Numbered from the stretch's first letter, positions 8,948-49,762 are shown. The stretch: 64,000 bases of DNA from Bianqueaceae bacterium (GCA_045599825.1 JAZRWR010000113.1:3938-67937), one strand, 5' to 3'. The notes: generated by a model from the letters alone, not told the origin. A program made the numbers and translations.

Positions 8948-8948
8948 A

Positions 8949-17548: not shown

Positions 17549-17584
17549 AAAGTGTATTTTTATCTATATCGAGGAGGACAGCGC

Positions 17585-18328: not shown

Positions 18329-18339
18329 GAGGATTTTCT

Positions 18340-19143: not shown

Positions 19144-19152
19144 GGAGGAGAA

Positions 19153-22286: not shown

Positions 22287-22313
22287 CGCTTCCTGACAGA
22301 AAGGAGGGCACCC

Positions 22314-23993
22314 GTGAAGAAAAAGCTCAGTGACATCAAGGAGCTGTGGCAGGAGATTGTCTGGATCTACCGCTACGGAAAGAATTACACGGGCGCCATT
22401 CTGCTTTATGTTCTGCTGGGGCTTCTGGCCACGGCAGTGGGCCTTTTCAGCTCGGTCGTCTCCAAGTACCTGATCGACGCGGTCACGTCCGGAGATGTTT
22501 CCCGCATCAGCCTGATCATTGCGCTCTATGTGGGCTTCGGTGTGACGCGTATCCTGCTCGGGGCGCTGACGAAGCGCTTCCGCGCGCATACCGGCGTGAG
22601 GGCCACCAACGAAATCCGCGAGGACCTTTTCGGCCGTTTCCTGGCCATCGACTGGCAGGCATCCCTGGACTACCATTCCGGAGACCTTTTAAGCCGCATC
22701 AACAGCGATGTCGCCACCGTGGCCGACAGCATCCTCGGCCTGATTCCGAGCCTGATCACCGCGGGCCTGCAGTTTGCGGGCGCCCTTTTGGTGATTCTGA
22801 TCTACGATCCGATGATGGCGCTGTGGGCACTGATTTCAGCCCCTGTCACGGTCCTGTTCTCGCGTCTTTTTCTGACGAAGATGCGCGCCCTCGGCCAGAA
22901 GGTCCGGGAGCGGCAGGCGGATCTGACCGGCTTTTACGAGGAAGCCCTGCAGAATCTGCAGGCTATCAAGGCCTTTCATCTGAACGGCACCATGGAGGAG
23001 CGTCTGGCCGGGCTGCAGCAGCTGTACAAGGATGTCTATCTGGAGAGCGCTGATTTCTCCGTCTGGATGGGCGTTGTCATGTCCGTGCTCGGCTTTGCGA
23101 CCTCGGGCCTCTGCTTTGCCTGGGGCGCGTTCCGCCTGTGGACAGGCTATATTTCCTTTGGCACGATGGTGCTTTTCATCCAGATGGCAGGCACGGTAAC
23201 GAGCGCCTTCAGCTCTTTGGTTTCGATCGTCCCAGGCGCCGTGAGCGCCGCGGTTTCGGCCGGCCGTCTGATGAAAATTCTGGAGCTTCCCGCCGAAAAT
23301 TCCGAGACGGACGAGGAGACAGAGGCCTTTATCGAAAAAGCGTTTACGGCCGGTGCGGGCCTGGTGCTGGAGAACGTCTCTTTTGCGTACCGCGAGGGCA
23401 TTCCGGTGCTGGAGCAGCTGAATCTGACGGCTGAAAACGGTCAGATCATCGGTATTATCGCGGAAAGCGGCGGCGGCAAGACGACACTGATCCGCCTGCT
23501 TCTGGGGCTGGTAAGCCCTGACGGAGGAGAGGCCTTCGTGCTTCTTTCCGACGGGACGAGGAAGCCGCTCAGCCCTGCGCTGCGTCCGCTTTTCTCCTAC
23601 GTGGCCCAGGAAAAGGTCGTCTTTTCCGGCACGGTGGCAGAGAGCCTGCGGCTGGGAAATCCCGCAGCAGGCGATGAAGCTCTGTGGGACGCGCTGGAAC
23701 GAGCCTGCGCTGCCGATTTCGTACGCGCGCTGCCCGAGGGCATCGATACGAAGCTGGGCGAGCGCGGTGCGGGTCTGAGTGAGGGACAGATCCAGCGTTT
23801 GGCCATCGCCCGGGCCATCCTGAGTCCCGCGCCCCTGCTCCTTCTGGACGAGGCTACCTCGGCCCTTGATTTTGAGACCGAAAAAAAGGTGATCCACGGT
23901 CTGCTGGCCGGCGAGGAGCGCCGACGCACGGTCATCGCAACAACGCACCGCCCGACGGTGCTCGAATACTGCGATGCCGTCATTCAATTATAA
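22314..23993 (+). CDS. ABC exporter, fused permease/ATPase (type I exporter, 559 aa)
   Basis: Six-TM N-terminal domain. P-loop AESGGGKTT, signature LSEGQIQRLAIARA and Walker B LLLLDEATSALD are present. GTG start follows AAAGGAGG. Confidence 0.85.
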   Translation: MKKKLSDIKELWQEIVWIYRYGKNYTGAILLYVLLGLLATAVGLFSSVVSKYLIDAVTSGDVSRISLIIALYVGFGVTRILLGALTKRFRAHTGVRATNEIREDLFGRFLAIDWQASLDYHSGDLLSRINSDVATVADSILGLIPSLITAGLQFAGALLVILIYDPMMALWALISAPVTVLFSRLFLTKMRALGQKVRERQADLTGFYEEALQNLQAIKAFHLNGTMEERLAGLQQLYKDVYLESADFSVWMGVVMSVLGFATSGLCFAWGAFRLWTGYISFGTMVLFIQMAGTVTSAFSSLVSIVPGAVSAAVSAGRLMKILELPAENSETDEETEAFIEKAFTAGAGLVLENVSFAYREGIPVLEQLNLTAENGQIIGIIAESGGGKTTLIRLLLGLVSPDGGEAFVLLSDGTRKPLSPALRPLFSYVAQEKVVFSGTVAESLRLGNPAAGDEALWDALERACAADFVRALPEGIDTKLGERGAGLSEGQIQRLAIARAILSPAPLLLLDEATSALDFETEKKVIHGLLAGEERRRTVIATTHRPTVLEYCDAVIQL

Positions 23994-24459
23994 TATGATG
24001 ATGCACGAAGTATCTGCCGCGGCTGAAGTGCTGCCGCGTATGAAAAAGGCGCTGTCGGAGTTCGGCCTGTGCCGCCTGGTCGTCACCGGAGGCAGCATGC
24101 TGCCCTTCCTGCACTCCAGGCGCGACGCGGTCCTGCTGGAGCCCTTTGACGGTACGGCAAGAGTCGGCGACATCCTGTTCTATCAGCGCAGCGAAAATTT
24201 CTGCGTGCTGCACCGGGTGCATCGCATGGGCCGGGACGGCCTTATGTACTGCACCGGCGATATGCAAAGTCAGCTGGAGCCTGTGCGGCCTGAGCAGGTG
24301 ATCGCACGCGTGCAGGCTGTCGAGGTCAAGGGCAGACGCACGCCCGTAACGGCCTTTTCCTACCGCCTGCGAAGCGCGCTGTGGTATCCCACCCGGCCGA
24401 TTCGGCCGCTGATGGCGCGCGTCTATCTGTCCCTTCGGCAAAAAAACGTTAACAAGTAA
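23974..24459 (+). CDS. S26 (SipW/ER-type or SodX-like) signal-peptidase-family protease, apparently soluble
   Basis: GGSMLPFL matches the G.SM.P catalytic Ser block. GDILFY and VLHRVHR match the S26B GDI...HRV His block. No N-terminal TM helix is visible. The start overlaps the ABC gene end by 20 nt. Confidence 0.6.
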   Translation: MPSFNYNMMMHEVSAAAEVLPRMKKALSEFGLCRLVVTGGSMLPFLHSRRDAVLLEPFDGTARVGDILFYQRSENFCVLHRVHRMGRDGLMYCTGDMQSQLEPVRPEQVIARVQAVEVKGRRTPVTAFSYRLRSALWYPTRPIRPLMARVYLSLRQKNVNK

Positions 24460-24470
24460 GAGGAAGCAGC

Positions 24471-25187
24471 ATGAAAAAAGAAACGAGTCCGCTTTTTAAA
24501 GTCCTGCACGGGGTTTTTTTACTGCTCGTTGCGGTAGTGGCGGGTCTCGCGGTGCTTCGTGCCTGCCAGCTTGGCTGGTTTGAGAGAAAACAGCCCGCTG
24601 AAAGCGATATCGCTTCCGAAAGCGAGGAGAGCAAGGCTTTGCTGGAGCTGGACGGCAAGTTCAGGCTCATCAGCGTGATGACGCTCTCCGGCTCCTTCTA
24701 CGAGGACGCAAGCAACGACCCGGTCGAAAAGGTGCTGACTGTTCTGCTGCAATACAGCGGCGAAAAGGCCGTCCGCTCGGCTGAGCTCGTGCTGAACGGC
24801 TGCTATCATTTTGTGCTGAGTGCGGTGCTGCCCGGCGACTCGATTTATGTGCTTGAGCAGAACCGAAGCGTTTATCCGCAGGGAATGACCATTGCCTCGG
24901 CAGAGCTTTGCTCCGTGGAATACTATGAGGAGCTGCCCGGCCTGATGGAGGAGCAGCTTTCGATTCTCGTGAACGGTAAGAGCCTGACGGTGCAGAACCG
25001 AAGCGACAGTGAGATGTTTCCCGGCGGCACGCTGGTGTATAAAAATGAATACGAGGGCTGTCTGCTGGGCGGAATCAGCTACACGCTGGAGCTCCCGCCG
25101 CTCATCCCGGGCCAGAGCGCAGAGCTTACGGCGGAGCGCTGCCGCGGCAGCGGCTCGCGGCTGATGTTCATTTTGCCCGCCGACTGA
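24471..25187 (+). CDS. Hypothetical N-terminally membrane-anchored protein (238 aa)
   Basis: One TM helix (VFLLLVAVVAGLAVL) followed by a beta-rich ectodomain. No family recognised. Confidence 0.45.
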   Translation: MKKETSPLFKVLHGVFLLLVAVVAGLAVLRACQLGWFERKQPAESDIASESEESKALLELDGKFRLISVMTLSGSFYEDASNDPVEKVLTVLLQYSGEKAVRSAELVLNGCYHFVLSAVLPGDSIYVLEQNRSVYPQGMTIASAELCSVEYYEELPGLMEEQLSILVNGKSLTVQNRSDSEMFPGGTLVYKNEYEGCLLGGISYTLELPPLIPGQSAELTAERCRGSGSRLMFILPAD

Positions 25188-25199
25188 GAAACTTGTCCC

Positions 25200-25228
25200 T
25201 TGTGAAAATCACGCAAAACCTGTATAAT
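25200..25228 (+). promoter_or_regulatory. Putative internal sigma-70-type promoter upstream of the radical SAM gene
   Basis: TTGTGA (25200-25205), a 17-nt spacer, then TATAAT (25223-25228), 25 nt before ATG 25254. Confidence 0.5.
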
Positions 25229-25253
25229 ATATTCCAAGACCGAGGACGCGACT

Positions 25254-26396
25254 ATGCTTGACAACCGACCCGCCGGATATGTGCCCCGTTCGGAGCCCAT
25301 GATTTCCAGCCATCTGAACGCGCTGGGCATTCGCAAGGGCCTGCCTGTTTCCGGAAACTTTGAGCTGACTGCCCGCTGCAATTTCGACTGCCGCATGTGC
25401 TATGTGCACCAGAACGGCGATCTGCGCCGGCGGGAGCTCTCCGCCGATACCTGGCTGGGTCTCGCATCCGACGCGCGCGACCTGGGGATGATGTTCCTGC
25501 TGCTGACCGGCGGCGAGCCCTTCATCCGTGAGGACTTTCCTTATATCTATGAGGAGCTCGTCAGGATGGGGCTGGTCGTCTCCGTCAACACCAACGCCTC
25601 TCTTTACAGCGAAGAGCTGCGCGAGCTGTTTCTGAAATATCCGCCTTCACGCCTGAACGTCACGCTGTACGGTGCGTCCGAGGAGACCTACCGCGCGCTC
25701 TGCCGCAGCGCTTCGTACGAAAAGGTCGTCTCCAATCTTCGTTCGATGAAGGCCGACGGCCTGCAGGTGCGTCTAAACGTGTCTCTCACGCCCTGGAACG
25801 TGGCCGACATGGAGGGCATCCATCAGATCGCCGCCGATATCGGTCTGAACGCCAAGGGTTCGGCCTATATGTATCCCCCGGTGCGCCTCACGGAAAGCTA
25901 CGGCGAAAACGCGGCGCGCTTCAGCCCGGAGGAGGCCGGCCGTGTTTTCGCGGCCTGGAACCGCCTGAACGAAGGCGATGAGCGCTTCCTCGCGAAGGCA
26001 GAGGCAATGGGACGCTGGGACAACTGTGAGGAGATTCTGGCGGACAGCCCCGAAAACGGCGTCCGCTGCCGCGCCGGCCGCAGCAGCTTCTGGCTGACCT
26101 GGGAGGGCAAAATGCTTCCCTGCGGCACCATGGATATCGAGACCTCCGACGCTTTGAGCCTGGGCTTTGCCAAGGCCTGGGAGGAGGTGCGTGCGCGGAC
26201 GGCAGCCATTCGCCTGCCCGCCGAGTGCGCATCCTGCAGTCACCGTCAGAACTGCAGTCTGTGCGCGTCCATCTGTCGCTGCGAAAGCGGAGGCTTTGAC
26301 AAACGGCCCGAATATCTTTGCAAAATGGAGAAAAGCCGCTATGAGGAAACTCAGAAGCTGGCCCAACTGATTAAGGAGGAGAACCATGCAGATTAA
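25254..26396 (+). CDS. Radical SAM enzyme with a C-terminal SPASM domain
   Basis: CNFDCRMC (CX3CX2C) cluster and GGEPF are present. C-terminal Cys-rich region is CRAGRSSF...LPCG...CASCSHRQNCSLCASICRC. Confidence 0.85.
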   Translation: MLDNRPAGYVPRSEPMISSHLNALGIRKGLPVSGNFELTARCNFDCRMCYVHQNGDLRRRELSADTWLGLASDARDLGMMFLLLTGGEPFIREDFPYIYEELVRMGLVVSVNTNASLYSEELRELFLKYPPSRLNVTLYGASEETYRALCRSASYEKVVSNLRSMKADGLQVRLNVSLTPWNVADMEGIHQIAADIGLNAKGSAYMYPPVRLTESYGENAARFSPEEAGRVFAAWNRLNEGDERFLAKAEAMGRWDNCEEILADSPENGVRCRAGRSSFWLTWEGKMLPCGTMDIETSDALSLGFAKAWEEVRARTAAIRLPAECASCSHRQNCSLCASICRCESGGFDKRPEYLCKMEKSRYEETQKLAQLIKEENHAD

Positions 26397-26649
26397 AGGT
26401 GAATTTATCAAACGAGACATTGCGGGAGAAAGCTTTCTGGTGCCTGTCGGCGAAAGCCAGCACCGCTTCCCCGGACTGATTGCCTTGAACGAAGTGGCTT
26501 CCTTTGTCTGGGACCGGCTTCCTTCCTGTGAGACGGAGGCGCAGATCGTTGACGCCCTTCTGGACGAGTACGAGGTCGAGCGCTGGGAAGCGGAAGCCGA
26601 CGTGGCGGAGCTCATCGCCAAAATGACGGAAATGGGCCTGATTGAATAA
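26386..26649 (+). CDS. PqqD-family protein (RiPP recognition element-like), 87 aa
   Basis: Pattern present: FLVPVG...LIALNEVASFVWDRL....TEAQIVDALLDEYEV....AEADVAELIAKMTEMGLI. The start overlaps the rSAM stop by 11 nt. Confidence 0.75.
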   Translation: MQIKGEFIKRDIAGESFLVPVGESQHRFPGLIALNEVASFVWDRLPSCETEAQIVDALLDEYEVERWEAEADVAELIAKMTEMGLIE

Positions 26650-26661
26650 AGAATATGCACG

Positions 26662-26694
26662 AGGCCGGGGAGCTTTCCTCGGCCTTTATTGTTT
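26662..26694 (+). terminator. Rho-independent terminator after the rSAM-PqqD pair
   Basis: AGGCCGGGGA (26662-26671) pairs with TCCTCGGCCT (26676-85) with one G-U pair, followed by TTTATTGTTT. Confidence 0.6.
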
Positions 26695-26754
26695 GATGAG
26701 GCCGGGCACAGCGCCGGAGAAAGTTCATTTTTGGAATATTTTTATTCGTTTTTG

Positions 26755-26783
26755 TTGACTGAGAGCTGAAACTGAGATATACT
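26755..26783 (+). promoter_or_regulatory. Putative sigma-70-type promoter for the Lgt-like/vWA unit
   Basis: TTGACT (26755-26760), a 17-nt spacer, then TATACT (26778-26783). Confidence 0.5.
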
Positions 26784-26867
26784 GTATTGGTTATTGTCAG
26801 GCAGGAGGCACCGATATCATGAATACGCTGCCGGCTGTCTGTTAGTTCTCTCTTTTTTCTAAAAGCT

Positions 26868-27509
26868 ATGAGTTTATTGATTTATTTAGGCCTCGGGGCC
26901 GCCATGATGTATCTGGTCATGTTTTTTCTGCAGGACCGGTACAAGATCAAGCCAGGAAAGCTTCTCATGTTTGATCTCCTGCTTACCGTCTGCGGTGTCG
27001 CCGGTGTCAAGCTGATGTATTTTGTTGAAAACGGAAGTTTCGCGGGGCTTTCCTTCTTCGGAGCAGTGCTGATTACGCCGCTTCTTCTGATTCCCGTTGC
27101 GCTTCTTCTGAAGGAACGTGTTCCCGCCGTCCTGGATCTTTCCGCCCCGGCCATCTGCGCTATGCTTGGCGTCATGAAGATTCAGTGTGTGGTAGAAGGC
27201 TGCTGCCGGGGCCGCATGATGGACCTCTTCGGTCTGCTTTTGCCGTTCCGCTTTCCCAGTCAGTTGGTTGAGCTCGCGAATGCCTGCGTGCTGGTTGTGG
27301 TTTTGGTGTGTCTGGCGCGCAAAAAGGCCAATTACGGCCATATTTATCCGCTGTTTCTGGTTCTCTACGGAATCACGCGCTTTGTCTGGAACCTTTTCCG
27401 TGAGGCAGAGCCTTTCATCGGGCCTTTGCCTATCGGTAATTTCTGGTCTTTGATTTCTCTGATTATCGGCCTTATCTGGCTTTTCGCCCTGAAAAAGAAG
27501 AAGGCGTGA
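26868..27509 (+). CDS. Prolipoprotein diacylglyceryl transferase (Lgt) family paralog, short form (213 aa)
   Basis: Multi-TM protein. KIQCVVEGCCRGR resembles the RIGCFL.GCC.G block of short Lgt-family proteins. FPSQLVE resembles the Lgt P(T/S)QLYE motif. YGITRFVWNLFRE resembles Y...RF..EF.R. Confidence 0.5.
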   Translation: MSLLIYLGLGAAMMYLVMFFLQDRYKIKPGKLLMFDLLLTVCGVAGVKLMYFVENGSFAGLSFFGAVLITPLLLIPVALLLKERVPAVLDLSAPAICAMLGVMKIQCVVEGCCRGRMMDLFGLLLPFRFPSQLVELANACVLVVVLVCLARKKANYGHIYPLFLVLYGITRFVWNLFREAEPFIGPLPIGNFWSLISLIIGLIWLFALKKKKA

Positions 27510-27603
27510 TTTTTTGCATTTCGGTTTGTATGCACTAACGAATGTGCATGTTCTAACTGATATTAGTACTTTGGTAAAATACACTGTTGAAAGGTAGTAA
27601 GTT

Positions 27604-30510
27604 ATGAAGCAGTTAAAGAAGACCTTCGCTTTGTTCCTTTCCATGCTTCTTTGCCTGTCTGCCGTTCCCGCCGTCGGCGCTTTTGCCGATGAGGGCGGCT
27701 CCGACGAGGAAAGCGGTCTGATTTTGGACAAGTGGTACACTCCAAAAGCCGATTCCGGTGAAGGCATCCTGACGCTCGAAACCTACGTCAAGGGTACGGT
27801 CGTTCATACGACTACGGTAGTCAGCCAGCCGCTTGACATTGTTCTGGTGCTGGATGTATCCGGCTCCATGGATGATTCCCTTTCCGCCAGCGGCGCCAGC
27901 GGATATTCGGTCAGGACGGGTGTCTCTTATAACAACGCGAACCAGCGGAATTTCTATTTCCGCGAAGGAAACACCTATTACCGCGTTTATGCGCACAGAA
28001 CGGGCTTCGGTCTGGATGCTTATTATTACCTGAGCTTTACCAAGGACGGAACAGAATACTTCCTGAAGGGCGATTCGTATACGGAGGATATTTCTTCCGC
28101 TTGGGTCAGCAGCGGCAGCACAGCGATTTACACGGAAACGCTTTACTATTCGCTGGGGTACTCTCCCTCTAAGCTGGATGTATTAAAGAGCGCCGTAGCC
28201 GGCCTGATCGATACAGTCTATGCCGATGCCATTGCCAATGAGGTTGATCACCGTATCAGCATCGTCACCTTCGCTTCTTCGGCAAATACGGTTGACGAGC
28301 TGGTATCCGTAAGCGAAAACTATGACAGGCTGATAAAGGATACGGGCGCTCTGAGAGCAAACGGTGCTACGGCGGCCGACTACGGTCTTCAATCTGCCGA
28401 TACCGTTATGCAGGACGCCCGTTCCGACAGCAACAGGGTCGTCATCTTCTTTACTGACGGTGAGCCGAATCATAACAGCGGCTTCGACGGATCGGTTGCG
28501 ACCAAGGCAATCACGGCAGCTAAGAGCCTGAAGGATGACGGAGCCAAGGTCTATTCCGTCGGCGTATATGATGCGAGCTCCGGTGGAGGCGGCTGCGGAG
28601 GCGGCTGTGACGATGAGGCCGACCTTACCACTGTCATGAACTACATGCACGCCATCTCCTCCAACTATCCCGCTGCGACTTCTTATACGAGCAGTACCAT
28701 GGGCACCGGCAGCGATCTGGGTTATTCGCTGATGGCCGGTAATGCAGGCGAGCTTTCCGGTATTTTTGAGACAATTACCAAGGAGGCGGTCGAGGGTTCG
28801 GCCCGCATTCAGCTTGATGCCGATGCGGTCGTGCTGGATAAAATTTCCGACTATTTTGAGCTGCCTGAAGGCATTGAAGAAAAAGACATTAAGGTTTATT
28901 ATGCCGATTATCTCGGCAACGACAGCTGGAGTGAGAAGCGGGCTTTCACGGCTGCTGCATTGGAGCTTGATGTGAAGAATAAGCAGGTCCGCGTTTCCAA
29001 CTTTGACTTTGCTTACTACTTCGTTCCCGAGGACGGCGCGGCCAAAAACAGCAACGGAATTAACGGCCGCAAGCTGATTATTGAAATCCCCATTGTCGAT
29101 AACGGCACCGGCTTCGGAGATGTGCCTACCAATACGGGCGATTCCGGTGTTTATCAGAATGAAGAGAAGGTCGAAAACGGCGAGAGCGTTGATCGCTATC
29201 CCATCCCTGAAACGACCTTCCCGAGCTTCACTGTTATTCATTCCTCCGACAGTTCTGCGGATAAGATTCGTCTTTCCTCCGTCGGTACTGAGGGCTTTGA
29301 TCTTTCTGCCATCGTGAAGGAGGGCCATCTTTACGGTGGCTACTATCACTACGAAAACAGCACGGTAGGGGCTCCCTATACCTCGAGCGGTCTGACGCTT
29401 CAGCCTGCGGACGGTGCGGTATACTTCCTGCAGGAGGTGCCCAAGACCTATCTGCGTCCGGCCACTCTGTCCCTTTCCTCCAAGGGTGTTAAGTATACCT
29501 GGATGCTGACCGCTATTGACAGCCTGAACTACAAGCTGGCCGGCTTTGATGTGGCCGGTAAGGATATCAGTCTGACCGTACCGGAAGCGGCGGCGGAGCA
29601 GGACAGCTTCTGCAAGAGCAGCGCGGACGAGATGGACGCGGTCTGCGAGACAATCCATGTGGAAATGGTCTACGGAAAGACGTACGATTACGATGTTCTG
29701 ATGGTTTCCGGCAACCTCGACGGTTACATAGTCTGCCTGCGCTTCAGCAATCCGGAGAGCTATATCGATAACGGAAGCTTTGATGTTCATCCCTATTTTG
29801 TCACACCCGATAATGTCAAGGTTACCGGCGATACGGTCCGTACGTTGACCTACACTTCAGCCAATCTGACTGAGACTGCGTCCGGAACGGGTGCGAAGAA
29901 CCCTGTTTCCTCGGATGTGACGGATTTTGACGAATATGTCTCCGCTGCGCCCTATGCGCCTCTCCGGCTGATGAGCTTCGTGCCTCTGCGTGCGGTTCCC
30001 TCCAAGTCTCTTGAGGTTGTAGAGCCTGCGCCTCAGGCTCCCGTCGAAGAACCCGAGGCCGTTGAGGAGCCTGCAGGAGAGCCTGAGGTCGCTGAGGAAC
30101 CTGCGGAGGAATCTGCGGTCGTCGAAGAGCCGGCGGAAGAAACCGCGGAAATCGCTCCCTCGGATGCGTCTGATTATGAAGCCCCTGAGCAGGTCATTCC
30201 GGAGGAAGAGCCCGCTGAGGAGCCTGAGCAGAAGGAAAGAGTTACGCCGGTTATTCCGGATCCCGTCGTTGTAGAGCCCGAGGAAGAGCCTGCTCTTATT
30301 GAAAAGCCTGCCGAAGACGCGGCTGAAGCGCCCGTTGATGAAGCGGAGGATGTGCCGGCTGAGGAGCCTGCGGATACGGAGCCGGAAGCTGAGCACGCGG
30401 ATGAGGCTTCGACCGAAGAGGCCGTTATTATGCCTGCGATCAGCTGGCTGCTTCGCGTTCTGACTGCGGTCAGCACCTTCCTGGCCCGTCTGTTCGGTTT
30501 TGTGAAATAA
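27604..30510 (+). CDS. Secreted/cell-surface von Willebrand factor A domain protein with a Pro/Glu-rich stalk and a C-terminal hydrophobic anchor (968 aa)
   Basis: Signal peptide MKQLKKTFALFLSMLLCLSAVPAVGAFA. vWA MIDAS block VLVLDVSGSMDD, then IVTFASSA, GATAADYG, VVIFFTDGEPN. The C-terminus is an EEPAE-type repeat region followed by ISWLLRVLTAVSTFLARLFGFVK. No LPXTG motif. Confidence 0.8.
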   Translation: MKQLKKTFALFLSMLLCLSAVPAVGAFADEGGSDEESGLILDKWYTPKADSGEGILTLETYVKGTVVHTTTVVSQPLDIVLVLDVSGSMDDSLSASGASGYSVRTGVSYNNANQRNFYFREGNTYYRVYAHRTGFGLDAYYYLSFTKDGTEYFLKGDSYTEDISSAWVSSGSTAIYTETLYYSLGYSPSKLDVLKSAVAGLIDTVYADAIANEVDHRISIVTFASSANTVDELVSVSENYDRLIKDTGALRANGATAADYGLQSADTVMQDARSDSNRVVIFFTDGEPNHNSGFDGSVATKAITAAKSLKDDGAKVYSVGVYDASSGGGGCGGGCDDEADLTTVMNYMHAISSNYPAATSYTSSTMGTGSDLGYSLMAGNAGELSGIFETITKEAVEGSARIQLDADAVVLDKISDYFELPEGIEEKDIKVYYADYLGNDSWSEKRAFTAAALELDVKNKQVRVSNFDFAYYFVPEDGAAKNSNGINGRKLIIEIPIVDNGTGFGDVPTNTGDSGVYQNEEKVENGESVDRYPIPETTFPSFTVIHSSDSSADKIRLSSVGTEGFDLSAIVKEGHLYGGYYHYENSTVGAPYTSSGLTLQPADGAVYFLQEVPKTYLRPATLSLSSKGVKYTWMLTAIDSLNYKLAGFDVAGKDISLTVPEAAAEQDSFCKSSADEMDAVCETIHVEMVYGKTYDYDVLMVSGNLDGYIVCLRFSNPESYIDNGSFDVHPYFVTPDNVKVTGDTVRTLTYTSANLTETASGTGAKNPVSSDVTDFDEYVSAAPYAPLRLMSFVPLRAVPSKSLEVVEPAPQAPVEEPEAVEEPAGEPEVAEEPAEESAVVEEPAEETAEIAPSDASDYEAPEQVIPEEEPAEEPEQKERVTPVIPDPVVVEPEEEPALIEKPAEDAAEAPVDEAEDVPAEEPADTEPEAEHADEASTEEAVIMPAISWLLRVLTAVSTFLARLFGFVK
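30010..30420 (+). repeat. Low-complexity Pro/Glu/Ala-rich repeat region (EEPAE-like units) inside the vWA gene
   Basis: VEEPEAVEEPAGEPEVAEEPAEESAVVEEPAEETAE...EEEPAEEPE...EEPADTEPE. Confidence 0.8.
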
Positions 30511-30525
30511 GGAGGAAGAAAGATT

Positions 30526-30690
30526 ATGAATCCTTTTCTTTATACTGTCTATGACGGAAACGGAAATGAAATCGGCATGGTCAGTATGCCCTGGTCCCAG
30601 ATCGATTTTACGCCTGCGGCCGGGATTATTAACTTCGACGGTCATACCTACCGTCAGCTTGATGACAACACGCTGCAATTGCTGCGATAA
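30526..30690 (+). CDS. Unlisted small ORF, 54 aa (MNPFLYTVYDGNGNEIGMVSMPWSQIDFTPAAGIINFDGHTYRQLDDNTLQLLR)
   Basis: Hand-translated, below the 60-aa cutoff of the ORF track. GGAGG at 30511-30515 lies 10 nt upstream of ATG 30526. TAA at 30688-30690. A GC-rich hairpin plus T-tract follows at about 30703-30735. Confidence 0.45.
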   Translation: MNPFLYTVYDGNGNEIGMVSMPWSQIDFTPAAGIINFDGHTYRQLDDNTLQLLR

Positions 30691-30746
30691 CAGTAATAAT
30701 TTGGCGGTACCGCAATCGGCGCCGCCTTTTCTCTTGGAGATACAGA

Positions 30747-31490
30747 ATGCATTATATTACGTTTCCGTTGGCCGGACACAGGCTGGCCTACGCAACGGAC
30801 GACGATAAGTGCGCATCCTATTTGGAGGCGTACCGGAGGCTCTGTGAGGAATGCCGGGCATCCGCTCAGAACGCGGTAAGCGAAACGCTTTTCATGCTAA
30901 GCGAGGAGGAGTGCCGGAACGCGTCCGCGCACTACCCCGCGTGCTCGAGCCGGACCGAGGTTGAAATGGGGGAACTGCTTTTTCAAACCTCCTCGTATCT
31001 TTTGCGCCATGAGGCCTGTCTGTTCCACGGAGTCGCGTTTCTGTGGCGCGGCAGGGCGTGGATCTTTACCGGTCCGAGCGGCGCAGGAAAGAGCACGCAG
31101 TATATGCAGTGGAAACTGCGCTATCCGGAGGAGCTCGTGATCATCAACGGCGACAAGCCGGTCATCAGCCGCGGCGCAAACGGGAAGTTTTTCGCGTCCG
31201 GCTCTCCCTGGAACGGGAAAGAACATTTCGGGCAGGCGCTTGAGGCGCCCCTGGGCGGTGTGATATGGCTGGATCAGTCGAAGGAGAACCGCCTGGAGTC
31301 CATGAGCCCGGAGCAGGCGGCGCCGCGTCTGTTTCTGCAGTTTCTGCTGCGTCCCGCAGATGAGGCGGAGCTTGCGCGGCTGATTGCCCTCGAGGAGGCA
31401 TTGCTTGCGCAGGTGCCGGTGTGGCATTTAATGAATTTGGGCGACCGCGCGTCGGCTGAGCTTCTGCACGACGCTTTGGCGGAAGCATAA
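30747..31490 (+). CDS. HPr-kinase-related P-loop protein (HprK C-terminal-domain-like)
   Basis: LFHGVAFLWRGRAWIFTGPSGAGKSTQY matches the H(A/G)..........G.SG.GKS block of HprK-related kinases found in peptide-modification cassettes. No HPr-kinase N-terminal domain. Confidence 0.6.
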   Translation: MHYITFPLAGHRLAYATDDDKCASYLEAYRRLCEECRASAQNAVSETLFMLSEEECRNASAHYPACSSRTEVEMGELLFQTSSYLLRHEACLFHGVAFLWRGRAWIFTGPSGAGKSTQYMQWKLRYPEELVIINGDKPVISRGANGKFFASGSPWNGKEHFGQALEAPLGGVIWLDQSKENRLESMSPEQAAPRLFLQFLLRPADEAELARLIALEEALLAQVPVWHLMNLGDRASAELLHDALAEA

Positions 31491-31511
31491 GAGAAAGATG
31501 GGTTTACCGAT

Positions 31512-31802
31512 ATGATGAAATATCAGCTGAGGGACGGTGTCGTTCTGGCGGAGCTGTGTCACCAGCCGATGCTGGTCGCGACCGGCCCTGCGCTCGACCA
31601 CTGCGCCTATATGAGTCTGATGAATGACGACGCCGCATTTTATCTGAGACTGCTGGCAAATCCGCAGACGGTCTCGCAGATGGCGGCCGCTGCTGCGGTG
31701 CAATACGAGCAGAGCGAGGAAACCATGACAGCCATTGTGGAGCAGTTCATGGATTTCCTGGTCCAAAGAGGCTATGTGATACAGGTGAACGGCGATGAGT
31801 GA
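31512..31802 (+). CDS. PqqD-family protein (second copy, 96 aa)
   Basis: Pattern present: ...GVVLAEL..QPMLVA....LNDDAAFYLRLL...QTVSQMAAA.A.QYE.SEETMTAIVEQFMDFLVQRGYV. Confidence 0.6.
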   Translation: MMKYQLRDGVVLAELCHQPMLVATGPALDHCAYMSLMNDDAAFYLRLLANPQTVSQMAAAAAVQYEQSEETMTAIVEQFMDFLVQRGYVIQVNGDE

Positions 31803-33126
31803 GAGACTGAGCGAACGAGTCGAAGCGCTTTTTATCCGCATCCTTTCGGATTCTCTGCGGGGCGAAGCGTCGCCTGCGGCCTCGGAGCTTGCCGGCGAAG
31901 AAGAGGCGGCCGCGCTTCTGTCTTTGGCGCAGCGGCAGATGGTGCTGCCTTTGGTGCTCGAGGCCTGCCGTGACAGCCGGACCGTTCTGGAGCTTCCGAT
32001 GCTTCCGGAAATCCGCGTGCGCGCCTGCGCGTCCGTCGCGCATCAGATGGTCTACGACCGGCAGACACGCGAGCTCCTGTGCGCCGCCTATGAGGCCGGC
32101 TTCACGCCGCTGGTGCTGAAGGGCGTGATGTGCCGGCGCATCTATCCCGCGGGCAGTCTGCGTCCCTCCTCGGATGAAGACTTCTATCTGCGCCCGGAGG
32201 AGTTTCAGGGCTTCTGCCGTTTCATGACGGAGCAGGGCTTCAGCCGCGCGGATGACGGTCCTGCCGATGCGAAGGAGCCGGGCGAGCGCTGCTACTCGAG
32301 TGAAAAAACCGGCCTCTGTGTGGAGCTGCATCCCTGCTTTTTCTCAAAAGAAAAGGCCTTTGCCAGGGTCGAGACCGCGCTTTCGGACGCCTACGAGCGT
32401 CGGACCTGGTACGACTGCGACGGTCGGGTGTGCGACACCGTCGCCTCCCTCCTGCGGGCCCGGAAGCCGCGAAACGACGGCAAGCGGACAGCGTCCCTTT
32501 TTCAGGATAAGCTCTGTCTGTCGCTTTCTCCGACCGATCATCTTTTTTATCTGCTCGCTCATGCCTACAAGCATTTTCTTTACAGCGGCTTCGGCATCCG
32601 GCAGGTGCTGGACATCGGCCTGTGGGCCGGGAACTACGACCTGGAGCTGGACTGGACATCGCTTCTCAGAACGTTGGAGCGCTGCAGCATGAACGGCTTT
32701 GCGTCGGCGGTGCTCAGGCTGGCGCGCGACTGTTTCGGTATCGGAATCAGGCTGCCGGAGAAGCTGGCGGCGGACGAAACTCCGCTCGAACCGATGCTGA
32801 ACGATCTTCTGGATGCCGGCATCTACGGCTCCTCCGAGCTCAGCCGGCTGCACTCCGCGCCCATCCTGCTGGAGCGCGCGTCGGAGGGTGAGGACCGGAG
32901 TCCCGCTCGGCAGCTGTTCCCGCGCGCGAAGGCTCTGGAGAGCCGTTATCCCTTCCTGAGGGAGCGTCCGTGGCTCCTGCCCTGGGCCTGGCTGAAGCGC
33001 GACTGCGCCTACGTCAAGGAAACACTGACCCGCCGCGACAGCAAGATGATGCGGACGCTTCGGATTGCGGAAGAGCGTACGGAGCTGGCGCGTCTGTACG
33101 GCGTGCTTCCGGGAAAAAAGCAATAA
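31795..33126 (+). CDS. Uncharacterised nucleotidyltransferase family protein (NTP_transf_5-like, 443 aa)
   Basis: VLKGVMCRRIYPAGSLRPSSDEDFYL (LKG...YP....R...D.D) and VELHPCFF blocks are present. ATGA overlap with the preceding PqqD gene. Confidence 0.6.
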   Translation: MSERLSERVEALFIRILSDSLRGEASPAASELAGEEEAAALLSLAQRQMVLPLVLEACRDSRTVLELPMLPEIRVRACASVAHQMVYDRQTRELLCAAYEAGFTPLVLKGVMCRRIYPAGSLRPSSDEDFYLRPEEFQGFCRFMTEQGFSRADDGPADAKEPGERCYSSEKTGLCVELHPCFFSKEKAFARVETALSDAYERRTWYDCDGRVCDTVASLLRARKPRNDGKRTASLFQDKLCLSLSPTDHLFYLLAHAYKHFLYSGFGIRQVLDIGLWAGNYDLELDWTSLLRTLERCSMNGFASAVLRLARDCFGIGIRLPEKLAADETPLEPMLNDLLDAGIYGSSELSRLHSAPILLERASEGEDRSPARQLFPRAKALESRYPFLRERPWLLPWAWLKRDCAYVKETLTRRDSKMMRTLRIAEERTELARLYGVLPGKKQ

Positions 33127-34204: not shown

Positions 34205-34278
34205 TGCGTGCAGCAGGATTCGAACCCGCGGCCTTCTGGTCCGTAGCCAGACGCTCTATCCAGCTGAGCTATGCGCGC
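34205..34278 (-). tRNA. tRNA-Arg (anticodon ACG)
   Basis: Reverse complement folds as a cloverleaf: GCGCGCA-TA-GCTC..GAGC-TCTGG-CTACGGA-CCAGA-..-GCGGGTTCGAATCCTGC-TGCACGC-A. One C-A mismatch in the acceptor stem. CCA is not encoded. Confidence 0.85.
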
Positions 34279-34282
34279 ATAA

Positions 34283-34353
34283 AGCGGGTGAGGGGAATCG
34301 GACCCCCGTATCCAGCTTGGAAGGCTGGTGTTCTACCATTGAACTACACCCGC
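34283..34353 (-). tRNA. tRNA-Gly (anticodon TCC)
   Basis: Reverse complement is GCGGGTG-TA-GTTCAATGGTAGAAC-A-CCAGC-CTTCCAA-GCTGG-...-CACCCGC-T. CCA is not encoded. Confidence 0.85.
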
Positions 34354-34415
34354 AAGTAGTGGGGTAACAGTAGAACAAAAGACCTGTCAGCAAAATGCGG
34401 CTTGACAAAGTCAAA

Positions 34416-34488
34416 TGCCCAGAACCGGAATCGAACCAGTGACACGGGGATTTTCAGTCCCCTGCTCTACCAACTGAGCTATCTGGGC
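34416..34488 (-). tRNA. tRNA-Phe (anticodon GAA)
   Basis: Reverse complement is GCCCAGA-TA-GCTCAGTTGGTAGAGC-A-GGGGA-CTGAAAA-TCCCC-...-GGTTCGATTCC-...-TCTGGGC-A. CCA is not encoded. Confidence 0.9.
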
Positions 34489-34499
34489 ATAAGGTGTTG

Positions 34500-34586
34500 T
34501 GCCGGTGACCGGGATCGAACCGGTACGGTCGTATTAGGACCGTGGGATTTTAAGTCCCATGCGTCTGCCAATTCCGCCACACCGGC
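34500..34586 (-). tRNA. tRNA-Leu (anticodon TAA), long variable arm
   Basis: Reverse complement is GCCGGTG-TG-GCGGAATTGGCAGACGC-A-TGGGA-CTTAAAA-TCCCA, then a long variable arm (CGGTCCTAATACGACCG) and GGTTCGATCC. Length 87 nt. Confidence 0.85.
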
Positions 34587-34632: not shown

Positions 34633-34661
34633 ATATTAGCACAGTACCTTTGCAGTGTCAA
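34633..34661 (-). promoter_or_regulatory. Near-consensus sigma-70 promoter of the tRNA operon
   Basis: On the minus strand: TTGACA (34661-34656), a 17-nt spacer, then TAATAT (34638-34633). The -35 element overlaps the stop codon of the upstream GTPase-NYN gene. Confidence 0.6.
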
Positions 34662-37252
34662 GGATTATTTGAAAGATTTTCGATGAAATTGTCGATTTGG
34701 GCCAGAACGCGGCCTAATTCCGCGCGGAATTCGCGGGAAGAGAGGCGCAGCACGCCTGCGCGCAGGGCGCTCAGCTGGATCAGGGCATCCGAGGTGACCA
34801 CGCGCACGCGCAGGTCCCGGCCGAGGCCGCTGACGAAGCGCTCGATAAAGGCATCGGCGGTTTCGCGCTCCCGCGTGTAGACCACGTGGATGCCGCCCTC
34901 GTCGCTGCGTTCGCCCTCGTTCTCGGGCACGCGGTAGGCGTCGAAGACGACCAGAAGCTGACATCCGGTGAAGGACTGGTAGTTTACCAGCGCACGGATG
35001 AGGCGGTCCCGGGCCATGGAAAGGTCCGCAGCAGCCAGCTGCTTTAGCTCGTCCCAGGAGAAGATTAGGTTGTAGCCGTCGACCAGGAAGAAGCTGCCTT
35101 CGCCGCCGAAGAGGCCGAGGCGGACAGGGTCCTCGTCGATTTCCTCGGAGAGATAAAGGCGGCGCTCCTCACGGGTGAAGAGGGGACGCTTGATCGGCCC
35201 GAATTCGCGCAGCATGATGGCCTCAAGCTCTCTGTCGTCCAGCGAGCGAGGCACGGAGGAGGGAGCTTTTTCGGCAGACTCCGGGGCGGACTTGTCCTTG
35301 CGGAAGGGAAGGTGCATGTAGGCGGGGACTTCGTTCCAGGGGACGGTGCGCCCGGCTCCGTGCGAGCAGAAGACCGAGTCGGGGGTGTCGGCCAGGTTGT
35401 CGTAGGGACGGTAAGCGGCGGCTTCTATGACCTCGCCGGCATTGTGGCAGGGCGACCAGCCATCGGGCTCGAGACTCAGGCTGCCGCGTCCGGCGGTGTA
35501 GGCGGCCAGCTCACGCGCGTAGCCGTTCAGGGTCGCAACGGGTCCGCGGCCGCACAGAAGGACCGTTTCGCTGCCCTCGGGGGCCTCCATGGAGGCGTGG
35601 CGGAGCTTGAGATCGGTCATGGCTCGTCCCAGCTGCTCGGCGGGAAGCTGCAGGCGGAAGCGGTACATCGGCTCCAGCAGGGCCAGCTTGCCCTCGGCGC
35701 GGGCCTGCATGAGGCCCTGGCGGACGGCCCGGTAGGTGGCCTGGCGGAAGTCGCCGCCCTCCGTGTGCTTCTCGTGCGCACGGCCGGCCACGAGGCTGAG
35801 GCGGACATCGCTTAAGGGCGCGCCGATCAGGACGCCGCGGTGCTCCTTTTCGGCCAGATGCGTCAGGATCAGGCGCTGCCAGCCGCGGGCCAGCTCGTCC
35901 TCGGCAAGCTCCGAGCACAGCTCCAGACCGCTGCCTTCGGGCAGCGGCTCCATCATCAGATGCACCTCGGCGTAATGGCGCAGCGGCTCAAAATGACCGA
36001 CGCCCTCCACGGAGCCGGTCAGGGTCTCGCGGTACAGAATACGGCCCTCCGCAGCGCTGATGCGGATGCCGAAGCGCTCCAGGACGGTCGCCTCCAGCAC
36101 CTCGGTCTGGACGGCACCCATCAGATCGGCCTCGATTTCCTCGCTTTCGCGGTTCCAGCGCAGCCGAAGCGCGGGGTCCTCCTCGGCCAGCCCGCGGATC
36201 GTCTCAAAGACGGCTTTCGCGTCCGCTCCTTCCTCGGGGATCAGACGGTAGCTCATGACCGGCTTTAAGCGCGGCGCCGGAGCGCTTTCCTCGGGCGATG
36301 CCGCCGCGCCGAAATATCGGCCGCTCATAAGACTGCCGAGGCCGGTCAGCGCCGCGCAGTCGCCGGCCTCCAGCCGTTCGGCGGCCTGGAACCGGGCCCC
36401 CTTCAGGAGCCGGATCTGCGTCACCTTTTCGGCGGCGTTCGTGCCGTCTGGCAGGGCGATGCTGACGGAGTCGCGGACAGTCAGGCTGCCCGACAAAAGC
36501 TTGATATGTGCCAGCCGGACCTCGTTTTCGTCCCGGCTGATTTTGAAGCAGAAGGCCCGGAGCGCGCCGTCCGCAGGATATTCGCGCGCCAGTCCGGCCA
36601 GACAGTTTAAGAGCGCCTCGGTGCCGACGTTCTTCAGCCCCGAGCCGAAAAAGCAGGGGAAGAGGCGGCGTGACATGACGGCGGAGGCGATGTCCTCGTC
36701 GCTCAGGCAGCCCTCGCGCTCGTAGCGCATCAGCATCGCCTCGTCGCTTAGGGCGGCGGCTTCCTCGCGCAGCGCCCGTTCGCGGTCAAAGCGGACGATA
36801 TCGCGGTCGAGCTCCCTGCGAAGACCCTCCAGAAGCTCCTCCTCGTCCAAACGGGAAAAGTCCATTTTGGACACGAAGAGGAGGGTGGGCACGCGGTATT
36901 CTTTTAACAGCCGCCACAGCGTCACCGTGTGGGCCTGCACGCCGTCCAGACCGCTGATGACCAGCACGGCGGCGTCCAACGCCAGAATGCTGCGCTCGGC
37001 CTCGGCGGAAAAGTCGATGTGGCCGGGCGTGTCCAGAAGCGTCATGCGCGCACCGGCGTATTCAAGGGAGGCCGTGCCGGTGAAAATCGTGATGCCGCGG
37101 CGCTTTTCGAGCTCGTGCGCATCCATCACGCTGGTCCGGCCGTTCACGCTGCCGGCACTGCGGATGGCGCCGCTGTGGAAGAGCAGGGCTTCCGCCAGCG
37201 TCGTTTTGCCCGCGTCCACATGGGCTACCAGTCCTACGGTCAGCTTCTTCAT
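34658..37252 (-). CDS. TetM/EF-G-family translational GTPase fused to a C-terminal Rae1/YacP-type NYN endoribonuclease domain (864 aa)
   Basis: N-terminus: VGLVAHVDAGKTTLAEALLFHSGAI..GSV..GTSVMD..ELEKRRGITI, DTPGHIDF, VSKMD (G1-G4), followed by EF-G domain II-V-length sequence. C-terminal ~165 aa: FFLVDGYNLIFSW..LK, YQSFTGCQLLVVFDA, YTRERETADAFIE, VRVVTSD. These align block by block with B. subtilis YacP/Rae1. AAAGGAG lies 9 nt before ATG 37252. Confidence 0.85.
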   Translation of the reverse strand: MKKLTVGLVAHVDAGKTTLAEALLFHSGAIRSAGSVNGRTSVMDAHELEKRRGITIFTGTASLEYAGARMTLLDTPGHIDFSAEAERSILALDAAVLVISGLDGVQAHTVTLWRLLKEYRVPTLLFVSKMDFSRLDEEELLEGLRRELDRDIVRFDRERALREEAAALSDEAMLMRYEREGCLSDEDIASAVMSRRLFPCFFGSGLKNVGTEALLNCLAGLAREYPADGALRAFCFKISRDENEVRLAHIKLLSGSLTVRDSVSIALPDGTNAAEKVTQIRLLKGARFQAAERLEAGDCAALTGLGSLMSGRYFGAAASPEESAPAPRLKPVMSYRLIPEEGADAKAVFETIRGLAEEDPALRLRWNRESEEIEADLMGAVQTEVLEATVLERFGIRISAAEGRILYRETLTGSVEGVGHFEPLRHYAEVHLMMEPLPEGSGLELCSELAEDELARGWQRLILTHLAEKEHRGVLIGAPLSDVRLSLVAGRAHEKHTEGGDFRQATYRAVRQGLMQARAEGKLALLEPMYRFRLQLPAEQLGRAMTDLKLRHASMEAPEGSETVLLCGRGPVATLNGYARELAAYTAGRGSLSLEPDGWSPCHNAGEVIEAAAYRPYDNLADTPDSVFCSHGAGRTVPWNEVPAYMHLPFRKDKSAPESAEKAPSSVPRSLDDRELEAIMLREFGPIKRPLFTREERRLYLSEEIDEDPVRLGLFGGEGSFFLVDGYNLIFSWDELKQLAAADLSMARDRLIRALVNYQSFTGCQLLVVFDAYRVPENEGERSDEGGIHVVYTRERETADAFIERFVSGLGRDLRVRVVTSDALIQLSALRAGVLRLSSREFRAELGRVLAQIDNFIENLSNNP

Positions 37253-45507: not shown

Positions 45508-45586
45508 TTATTAACCTGAGAAATCAATGGCTGACGGTGGGGGCAACCCCTGTCAGCCATTTTATGCATTTAAGGGAGCTTTTCGC

Positions 45587-47365: not shown

Positions 47366-47376
47366 AAGAGGTTTGT

Positions 47377-48771: not shown

Positions 48772-48787
48772 TCGGAGGTTTTTCCCT

Positions 48788-49747: not shown

Positions 49748-49762
49748 CGAAAGGAAAGGAAA

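Follow-up and report, generated by a model that had tools for sequence, protein, structure and literature searches.

A cyclase-less ScmC-like/PqqD gene cassette in a Bianqueaceae bacterium as a candidate system for small-peptide maturation

Three consecutive genes at positions 30,747-33,126 of a 64,000-nucleotide stretch of DNA from a Bianqueaceae bacterium (GCA_045599825.1, JAZRWR010000113.1:3938-67937; the whole stretch is called the window) encode a ScmC-like P-loop protein with the fold of HPr kinase (HprK), a PqqD-family protein and a nucleotidyltransferase of the NTP_transf_5 family. We propose, at a little less than even confidence, that these genes belong to a cyclase-less cassette that matures and exports a small ribosomal peptide, and that would be guided by a recognition element (RRE) of the kind known from peptides made by ribosomes and modified after translation (RiPPs) and tied to a cell-surface adhesin locus. 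Because the gene order was found again in many unrelated genomes, the three-gene arrangement exceeds chance. An initial annotation, made from the sequence alone, had suggested a non-lasso system for peptide or protein phosphorylation or nucleotidylation, and both the family matches and the gene linkage reported here support that suggestion. The genes of the cassette and the features directly 5' of it are:

27604-30510, + strand: secreted vWA protein with an X-domain (968 aa; Pfam VWA, Pro/Glu-rich linker, C-terminal hydrophobic helix)
30526-30690, + strand: small open reading frame (ORF) of 54 aa (MNPFLYTVYDGNGNEIGMVSMPWSQ...), candidate precursor peptide (AGGAGG 8 nt 5' of the ATG)
30703-30735, + strand: GC-rich hairpin and U-tract that separate the small ORF from the ScmC-like gene, possible attenuator (stem 30703-30726, then UUUUCUCUU)
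30747-31490, + strand: ScmC-like P-loop protein of the HprK/PEPCK fold, putative peptide kinase (247 aa; PF27840, model, motif)
31512-31802, + strand: PqqD2, PqqD-family protein, putative RRE (96 aa; Pfam PF05402, 32.1 bits vs 23.4)
31795-33126, + strand: NTP_transf_5 nucleotidyltransferase (443 aa; Pfam PF14907, 128.5 bits vs 31.2, E 4e-37)

A co-directional island with RiPP-type gene content

The three ORFs are positioned and oriented exactly as first annotated. The last two had been described as coupled by a four-nucleotide ATGA overlap, which has to be corrected: the overlap between PqqD2 and the nucleotidyltransferase spans 8 nt (ATGAGTGA), with the PqqD2 stop codon TGA at 31800-31802. 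The cassette closes an island of genes that all lie on a single strand (+, 17552-33126), between a symporter gene and an aminotransferase gene of the opposite strand. The first half of the island encodes, in this order, a CpsB phosphatase, an Ig-like membrane protein, two bacterial tyrosine kinases (BY-kinases) with Wzz and P-loop parts, an ABC exporter, an S26-type peptidase and a 238-aa membrane protein. The second half consists of a radical S-adenosylmethionine (rSAM)/SPASM gene, PqqD1, a terminator, and the genes for an Lgt-like protein, the vWA protein, the small ORF, the ScmC-like protein, PqqD2 and the nucleotidyltransferase. Within 22314-33126 the gene content is of the RiPP type, with the small ORF, two PqqDs, the ScmC-like, NTP_transf_5, rSAM/SPASM, S26 and ABC genes all co-directional.

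The ScmC-like protein has the HprK fold

The AlphaFold model of the 247-residue protein has a predicted local distance difference test score (pLDDT) of 94.8 and a predicted template modelling score (pTM) of 0.91. According to a Foldseek search against the PDB, the best matches are the C-terminal domains of HprK/P (L. casei, 1kkl, E 2.5e-6, TM-score 0.50 on the target), followed by ATP-dependent phosphoenolpyruvate carboxykinases (PEPCKs). The two groups share one kinase fold. A profile of 22 homologues compared with PDB sequences retrieved HprK chains at E 1e-3 to 1e-2, below many ABC P-loops.

The protein carries the block H94...G109-P-S-G-A-G-K-S116; none of the residues H94, S111, G112, G114, K115, T117, P154, W155 and G157 varies among the 22 homologues, and at least 90% of these have D136. 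The spacing H94-x14-G109-x2-G112-x-G114-K115-S116 is identical to that of H148-G163-G166-G168-K169-S170 in the lasso precursor kinase BsfK, where the H-x14-GxxGxGKS motif has been shown to matter by mutagenesis (PMC10368454). Judging from fold and motif, we regard the 247-residue protein as probably a catalytically competent HprK-fold P-loop enzyme of the ScmC family.

Profile models give a thinner picture. The precomputed Pfam family of this exact sequence is PF27840 (ScmC), given without a score. The sole NCBIfam match is HprK_rel_B (E 0.053, 12.6 bits vs a cut-off of 200). The ScmC model TIGR04249 did not match the window protein and gave 23-31 bits against a cut-off of 125 for relatives in L068 and L071 (L numbers denote loci from other genomes), and relatives score 16.5-29.5 bits with the HprK_rel models (TIGR04352/04355, cut-off 200). 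The curated HprK-related/PqqD cassette models to which the initial annotation had pointed are thus matched far below their cut-offs or not at all. Since Pfam Hpr_kinase_C is unmatched while model and motif agree, the term HprK-like holds by fold and motif and not by hidden Markov model (HMM): of the HprK-like block first described, the motif (H-x14-GxxGxGKS) and the fold (1kkl) stand, and membership of Hpr_kinase_C does not.

PqqD proteins, nucleotidyltransferase and processing genes

Four further island genes bear directly on a peptide pathway:

22314-23993, + strand: ABC exporter with fused membrane and ATPase parts and no C39 peptidase domain (559 aa; Pfam ABC_membrane + ABC_tran)
23974-24459, + strand: predicted soluble S26-type (SipW/Sec11-like) serine peptidase, putative leader peptidase (161 aa; motifs GGSMLP, VLHRV, GDM)
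25254-26396, + strand: radical SAM/SPASM-type enzyme (380 aa; Pfam Radical_SAM, 73.9 bits)
26386-26649, + strand: PqqD1, PqqD-family protein (87 aa; Pfam PqqD, 59.1 bits vs 23.4)

The assignment of the 96-residue protein to the PqqD family was borne out by Pfam, and its top NCBIfam match is ScmD. PqqD1 has lasso PqqD chaperones as its top NCBIfam matches, below cut-off. The two proteins differ in their nearest relatives among the related loci, which fall into two layouts, A and B (described below): PqqD1 is 47% identical to PqqDs directly after ScmC-like genes in type B loci, and PqqD2 is nearest to PqqDs after ScmC-like genes in type A loci. The window therefore looks like both layouts merged around one ScmC-like gene.

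The 443-residue protein likewise passes the Pfam threshold of the family first named for it. It retains the D-x-D and ELH blocks (D127-E-D129 and E-L-H from residue 177), the former comparable to D134/D136 of PsmN, and it is 30-34% identical to the NTP_transf_5 genes of L016, L011, L020 and L010. The family assignment of the three genes thus holds in Pfam for PqqD2 and the nucleotidyltransferase, and by structure and motif, not by HMM, for the HprK-like protein.

The boxes GxSMxP, vLHRi and GDn of the S26-type protein (Ser/His, SipW/Sec11 type) are conserved across 29 homologues. The window protein itself scores 26.7 bits with NCBIfam sigpep_I_arch (cut-off 51.85) and has no Pfam match. Unlike in signal peptidases, a membrane helix is absent in 28 of the 29 homologues, and these proteins are therefore predicted to be soluble. 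On these sequence features, a cytoplasmic leader peptidase fits better than a signal peptidase. The ABC protein is 38-42% identical to ABC genes 3' of NTP_transf_5 in L016, L020, L010, L011 and L001-4. Many NCBIfam models of rSAM/SPASM peptide maturases matched the rSAM protein, all below cut-off, and with the rSAM protein encoded next to the ScmC-like gene in L071 it shares 33% identity (E 6e-64).

Related cassettes in other genomes

An HMM search of 1.84 billion cluster representatives (50%-identity clusters) returned 1,012 ScmC-like proteins at E ≤ 1e-30 and 5,755 at E ≤ 1e-10. With a 15-sequence alignment and one genome scanned per species, relatives were found in at least 529 species genomes, the best 80 of which are almost all metagenome-assembled genomes (MAGs) of gut or rumen Clostridia; Anaerocolumna sp. 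AGMB13025 and Blautia aquisgranensis are cultured carriers among these 80. For 89 fetched loci, ORFs were called and then compared with profiles that took each of the island proteins as starting point. Partners were counted within 5 kb of the ScmC-like gene in the best 80 of the at least 529 species-genome loci; as these are the best-scoring loci, the sample leans to the window's closer relatives. The counts were:

PqqD: 53 of 80 loci, directly downstream of the ScmC-like gene in 40
S26-type peptidase: 27 of 80 loci
ABC exporter: 26 of 80 loci
NTP_transf_5: 19 of 80 loci
X-domain protein: 11 of 80 loci
rSAM: 6 of 80 loci
BY-kinase: 5 of 80 loci

Type A loci, which are the closest to the window (38-52% identity), begin with the gene for a large secreted protein, after which come a small ORF, the ScmC-like gene and PqqD, sometimes an ORF of about 110 aa, and then usually NTP_transf_5 and an ABC exporter. 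Type B loci have the order ScmC-like gene, PqqD, S26 peptidase, often with ABC and NTP_transf_5 genes next. Two gene fusions, of ScmC-like with PqqD (P0021) and of S26-type peptidase with the N-terminal region of NTP_transf_5 (466 aa, L033 10746-12146), support functional links between the fused partners. The linkage of the three genes to each other and to their upstream genes, on which the initial annotation had made its case depend, is seen in other genomes: each of the 19 type A loci has a small ORF directly 5' of its ScmC-like gene, with the X-domain protein further 5'.

The wider association with S26, BY-kinase and rSAM genes also recurs. Besides the 27 loci with S26 peptidases, L010, L011, L016 and L020 carry ABC, CpsB (checked with Pfam in L010 only), Ig-like and two BY-kinase genes after NTP_transf_5; these are the genes of the window in a different order, and are thus kept together. 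In L071, a complete Anaerocolumna genome, one block contains BY-kinase, PqqD, rSAM, a 62-aa ORF, ScmC-like, S26, ABC and NTP_transf_5 genes.

Of the enzymes that define lasso clusters, neither an Asn-synthetase-like cyclase nor a transglutaminase-like B2 protease was found in the island or among 20 further window ORFs scanned, in agreement with what was first noted. These 20 comprise all but three of the called ORFs of at least 400 aa; the scan did not extend to 53343-54605, to 61598-63217 or to most of the small ORFs beyond the island. In other loci, no Asn-synthase-like or B2 protein was present among 10 sampled large neighbours.

A separate arrangement, in which the ScmC-like/PqqD pair is followed by a gene of about 490 aa, was observed in L026, L028, L035, L048, L055, L064, L076, L082 and L088, mostly MAGs of Christensenellaceae. 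This gene is DUF1846 by Pfam, in L026 only. With no peptidase, exporter or visible precursor in these loci, a housekeeping-type role of the core pair is possible there.

The small ORF as candidate precursor

The source record, too, annotates the 54-aa ORF as a gene (P0027). All 19 type A loci have a small ORF in this place, with the X-domain protein on one side and the ScmC-like gene on the other, and so do L090 and L091, two loci found independently via the X-domain. The window peptide aligns with that of L008 over YxV..G...EI.M..P.W, including the N-terminus. In lasso precursors, the leader features are Tyr(-17) together with Pro(-14) and Leu(-12), and the core of about 15-25 aa has Asp or Glu at position 7-9; YxxPxL is the leader motif recognised by lasso B1 proteins. 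Similar starts occur in the small ORFs of L071 (MKDYVKPTIEIVEL), L075 (MKNYQKPVLEVVEL), L025 (MKMYFKPILLSGG) and L023 (LYQAPVLLVSSGG). When a [YF]xxPx[L-like] start was looked for by regular expression near the ORF start, it was seen in 13 small ORFs no more than 400 nt from a ScmC-like gene, against about 2.3 expected from the remainder of the same loci (P 8e-7). The cores of the ScmC-adjacent small ORFs have 40-90 aa and are widely divergent, acidic and aromatic. Those linked to rSAM genes have Cys-rich cores (L060, L071, L022); a second, Cys-rich precursor was looked for near the rSAM gene of the window, and none was found.

The hairpin between the small ORF and the ScmC-like gene folds as RNA with -17.3 kcal/mol (z = -2.1). 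As a simple terminator scan did not report it, the evidence for an attenuator is weak.

Several other features of these small ORFs were recorded. A [ST][YFI]xxW motif is present in 8 of 9 tested peptides of a second family ('family 2'), L018 being without it. EF-hand/dockerin-like calcium-binding loops occur in type A small ORFs, with a strict match to PROSITE PS00018 in L019 (9672-9932) and L023 (1278-1514), and another group ends in a YD-repeat-like PDGSxxYFDxFGN hairpin. In the window, the small-ORF ATG shares the frame of the vWA gene, five codons past its TAA (30508-30528). We considered the small ORF as a read-through extension of the vWA gene and rejected this; the frames differ in L001, L005 and L008, so that the in-frame placement is probably due to chance.

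The X-domain of the upstream surface protein

The large proteins 5' of the small ORF in 19 loci have in common a domain of about 250 aa, here called the X-domain, which in the vWA protein covers residues ~523-789 (nt ~29170-29970) and usually lies at the extreme C-terminus of the large protein. It has no Pfam match and is recognised by the motifs FYVYHS, LYGGYY, TYYLKEVP..YL.P, YLISA.DD.NY.E.GF and PYW.TPDGV.VTG..RT. The other recognisable domains of these proteins vary, with vWA in the window and Flg_new or CLIPPER elsewhere. The X-domain is modelled as a tandem beta-sandwich (pLDDT 71). No PDB entry matches this model significantly, and the fold therefore offers no functional lead.

A homology search with the X-domain alone gave no matches, and a profile of 16 locus-derived X-domains found 41 further proteins. 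Two of three neighbourhoods seeded with these again contained X-domain protein, small ORF, ScmC-like gene and PqqD (L090, L091). The third, L092, is a phage-like contig that also encodes Sipho_tail, a DNA ligase and a Big_2 protein; its X-domain is part of a 338-aa protein (8001-9017), and no ScmC-like cassette lies in the vicinity. The GC content of the window is 0.53 over 26000-30000, which spans the Lgt-like, vWA and small-ORF genes, vs about 0.60 on either side, and third-position GC is lower as well. This low-GC stretch is the part most variable among related loci, which suggests cargo swapping.

Proposed mechanism and alternatives

Starting from what is shown above (which genes these are, their folds and motifs, the conserved order of the genes and the leader-like motifs), we infer each chemical step, the order of the steps and the final role as follows. 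The substrate would be the 54-aa ORF product, whose N-terminal segment would be bound by PqqD and handed to the ScmC-like enzyme for ATP-dependent phosphorylation of a peptide hydroxyl. NTP_transf_5 could then extend the phosphate, either by a hexose or by a nucleotide, in the manner of PsmN in pseudomycoidin. The soluble S26-type peptidase would cut off the leader, in the role of lasso B2, and the ABC protein would export the peptide product. The rSAM/SPASM enzyme with PqqD1 may introduce a cross-link. At the cell surface, the product would work alongside the co-encoded X-domain adhesin.

Several observations weigh against this scheme. The 247-residue protein has no match to Pfam Hpr_kinase_C at E ≤ 0.1, where just AAA_29/AAA_33 P-loop noise is seen, and reaches the cut-off of none of the curated NCBIfam models. 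It has G135-D136 at +19/+20 from the P-loop Ser, vs DD at +16/+17 in the lasso kinases (D186/D187 in BsfK, D158/D159 in PsmK); the acidic pair is thus shifted by 3 residues, and distant family members have DD or DE. The window peptide has a degenerate leader with P3-x-L5 only, contains no Cys, lacks the [ST][YF]xxW motif of the other peptide family and has no homologue among the fetched loci, and the L001 and L006 peptides show no YxxP leader at all. Cores of 40-90 aa are long for a RiPP. In many type B loci, finally, the ScmC-like gene and PqqD (with or without S26) lie among housekeeping genes with no visible precursor, exporter or NTP_transf_5, so that the core pair may act on something else.

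A bolder version of the maturation scheme, which we regard as doubtful, treats the ScmC-like/PqqD cassettes as a new and widespread class of ribosomal peptides or small proteins of gut and rumen Clostridia. Here the HprK-fold enzyme would be class-defining and the soluble S26 protein the leader peptidase, and the mature phospho-decorated acidic peptide would pair with the X-domain on its cognate adhesin in a two-component surface system.

Could the target instead be the X-domain protein (the vWA adhesin) or another surface protein, with the small acidic protein serving as partner, chaperone or docking subunit? We consider this unlikely. The X-domain protein is always upstream in type A (19/19) and in two of the three domain-seeded loci, distant cassettes often adjoin genes for surface proteins (SLH, BspA-type LRR, Flg_new, CLIPPER), and peptide type and X-domain subtype partly co-vary. 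Several small ORFs have EF-hand/dockerin-like loops, as small folded calcium-binding proteins do. However, PqqD proteins are known to bind short leaders, and it is on the small ORFs that the leader-like motif sits. The large proteins have Sec-type signal peptides and would thus exit unfolded, away from the soluble ScmC-like, PqqD, NTP_transf_5 and S26 proteins. Moreover, the X-domain occurs without the cassette in L092, and only the 11 of 80 ScmC-like loci counted above have it.

It is distinctly unlikely, in our view, that the ScmC-like protein is something other than a hydroxyl kinase. It could activate a carboxylate as acyl-phosphate or act as an ATP-driven partner of the S26 protein, in which case the product would be a new cross-linked or cyclised peptide with ScmC replacing the lasso cyclase. 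The PEPCK/HprK fold does include phosphoryl transfer to non-hydroxyl acceptors, the PEPCK matches are about as strong as those to HprK, the cores are very rich in Asp and Glu, and the DD pair typical of Ser kinases is altered. With leader, RRE, protease and exporter present, ScmC is also the sole candidate for a class-defining enzyme. Such chemistry, however, is without known precedent in this fold, the nearest characterised relatives PadeK, PsmK and BsfK are Ser/Thr kinases, and the co-occurrence of NTP_transf_5 suits decoration of a phosphate better.

Still less probable is a regulatory or accessory module for exopolysaccharide (EPS) or capsule that works with the CpsB phosphatase and the BY-kinases. 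An exopolysaccharide role has previously been suggested for cassettes of HprK-related kinase A/B and PqqD beside EPS loci. CpsB, Ig-like and two BY-kinase genes are linked in the window, L010, L011, L016 and L020, and their different order among these loci argues for selection on the linkage. L042, L046, L071, L075 and L089 have split BY-kinase genes next to their type B cassettes, and there are glycosyltransferase or CapD-like genes near the cassettes of L001, L014 and L038. Yet the island (17552-33126) has no gene for a glycosyltransferase, for Wzx or Wzy, or for a priming transferase, only 5 of the 80 loci have BY-kinases within 5 kb, and TIGR04352/04355 score 12-30 bits vs cut-offs of 200. 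A decayed, non-functional lasso cluster that has lost cyclase and B2 is hardly credible: HprK-like, PqqD/B1-like, NTP_transf_5 and ABC proteins and a YxxPxL leader are parts of Firmicute lasso clusters, but no gene is disrupted, many species share the cyclase-less arrangement at just 30-50% protein identity, none of the 10 large neighbours sampled elsewhere is Asn-synthase-like, the S26 peptidase occupies the protease position, and the cores are far longer than lasso cores.

What would follow if the cassette does mature a peptide as proposed? The lasso-type RRE, HprK-type kinase and PsmN-type transferase would have a second life outside lasso peptides, serving a large family of about 1,000 clusters in at least 529 species genomes, mostly of gut and rumen Clostridia. 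The ScmC/HprK-related families would gain a first testable function, and a soluble S26 peptidase would join the known RiPP leader peptidases. A modified peptide tied to large adhesins, and sometimes to BY-kinase modules, would bear on surface building and gut attachment. Mining tools keyed on class-defining enzymes would overlook these loci.

Other features of the island and its surroundings

The remaining features of the island are:

17552-18328, + strand: CpsB/CapC phosphatase (Pfam)
18340-19143, + strand: Ig-like membrane protein (Pfam)
19153-20685 and 20682-22286, + strand: two fused Wzz+P-loop BY-kinase-like proteins (Pfam)
24471-25187, + strand: 238-aa protein with an N-terminal membrane helix, placed in no family and listed by position alone
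26661-26686, + strand: terminator-like hairpin after PqqD1 (11-bp stem, T-rich tail)
26868-27509, + strand: Lgt-like membrane protein, membership uncertain (213 aa; Pfam LGT, 64.7 bits)

A promoter-like site at 26755-26783 lies beyond the hairpin at 26661-26686, which, as far as the sequence can tell, likely divides the island into two transcription units. The 238-aa protein has no Pfam, NCBIfam or PADLOC match and no homologue in related loci. No homologue in related loci was found for the Lgt-like protein either, a short paralogue of prolipoprotein diacylglyceryl transferase encoded directly 5' of the vWA gene. The C-termini of the BY-kinases are long (YGK)n/(YGKYG)n tails that arise from tandem repeats of 9, 15 and 30 nt (20581-20647, 22070-22211); the tails are far more regular than the usual tyrosine clusters, and the repeats could be length-variable. 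According to Rfam there is no regulatory RNA in the island, the only matches being four tRNAs. We also considered a defence system and rejected it, PADLOC having given generic rSAM matches only.

To the right of the island, past the class IV aminotransferase gene, are the four tRNA genes (34205-34586, - strand). They are followed at 34658-37252 (- strand) by a gene for an 864-aa fusion of an EF-G/TetM-like translational GTPase (GTP_EFTU, EFG_III, EFG_IV, EFG_C) with a C-terminal YacP-like NYN nuclease, an unusual combination. A cell-wall and division cluster about 12 kb right of the island (45527-54605, + strand) with a penicillin-binding protein transpeptidase, two Mur ligases and FtsW/RodA represents ordinary chromosomal context.

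Comparison with known systems

The initial annotation had called the combination of genes a system not described so far, and literature searches on ScmC, NTP_transf_5/PF14907 and HPr kinase with RiPP or RRE indeed found no description of a ScmC-like/PqqD/S26/NTP_transf_5 cassette; the only precedents found were lasso kinase/nucleotidyltransferase systems.

Among defined cassettes, SynChlorMet (ScmC, ScmD, ScmE/ScmF; PF27840, TIGR04248-04251) resembles the window in the filing of the 247-residue protein under PF27840, in ScmD as best match of PqqD2 and in the presence of an rSAM/SPASM gene in the island. Such a gene adjoins the ScmC-like gene in L060, L071, L022 and L057, and relatives weakly match TIGR04249. 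In contrast to SynChlorMet, the island has one rSAM gene and not two, the scores are low (ScmE 65.7 and ScmF 53.8 bits vs 400, ScmD 16-20 vs 100), and the SynChlorMet definition does not include NTP_transf_5, S26, ABC and X-domain proteins. We know of no function for the SynChlorMet cassette itself.

HprK-related kinases A/B (TIGR04352, TIGR04355) tend to occur with a PqqD gene near exopolysaccharide loci. The window shares with them an HprK-related P-loop protein beside PqqD, and some loci have BY-kinase or polysaccharide genes nearby; the scores of 12.6-29.5 bits vs cut-offs of 200 set the family apart, and most loci here are without EPS genes. The rSAM/SPASM pathways to thioether peptides (sactipeptides and ranthipeptides), which have a stand-alone or fused RRE, are resembled by L060, L071 and L022, where an rSAM/SPASM maturase, a PqqD and Cys-rich small ORFs accompany the ScmC-like gene, and by the L060 rSAM protein, which matches PapB, CefB and CcpM-type models below cut-off. 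Unlike in those pathways, the candidate peptide of the window has no Cys, and ScmC-like, NTP_transf_5 and S26 proteins are foreign to them.

The closest likeness is to the lasso tailoring set of Firmicutes and proteobacteria (PadeK, PsmK, BsfK; B1; PsmN-type; ABC). The PqqD-like protein BsfB1 strongly stimulates its partner BsfK, which phosphorylates an internal Ser (PMC10368454), and PsmK phosphorylates the PsmA precursor, with PsmN needed to add one or two hexoses to the phosphorylated peptide (PMC6993621). The window has an HprK-fold enzyme with H-x14-GxxGxGKS, a stand-alone PqqD beside the kinase-like gene, a D-x-D nucleotidyltransferase and an ABC exporter, and related loci have YxxPxL-type leaders and a protease-nucleotidyltransferase fusion. 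This S26-NTP_transf_5 fusion (L033) parallels the B2-nucleotidyltransferase fusions reported in lasso clusters (PMC8498205).

In contrast to lasso clusters, no cyclase or B2 was found among the window ORFs scanned, a soluble S26-type peptidase stands in the place of B2, and there is a tie between the cassette and a large surface protein with the X-domain. The kinase-like protein differs from the lasso kinases in failing Hpr_kinase_C and in having G-D for D-D, and the cores of 40-90 aa differ from lasso precursors in having no conserved C-terminal Ser. Judged by its genes, the system is most like the tailoring half of Firmicute lasso clusters, without the two defining lasso features. We take the cassette for a candidate variant of RRE-dependent peptide maturation, and there is a real chance that it represents a new product class.

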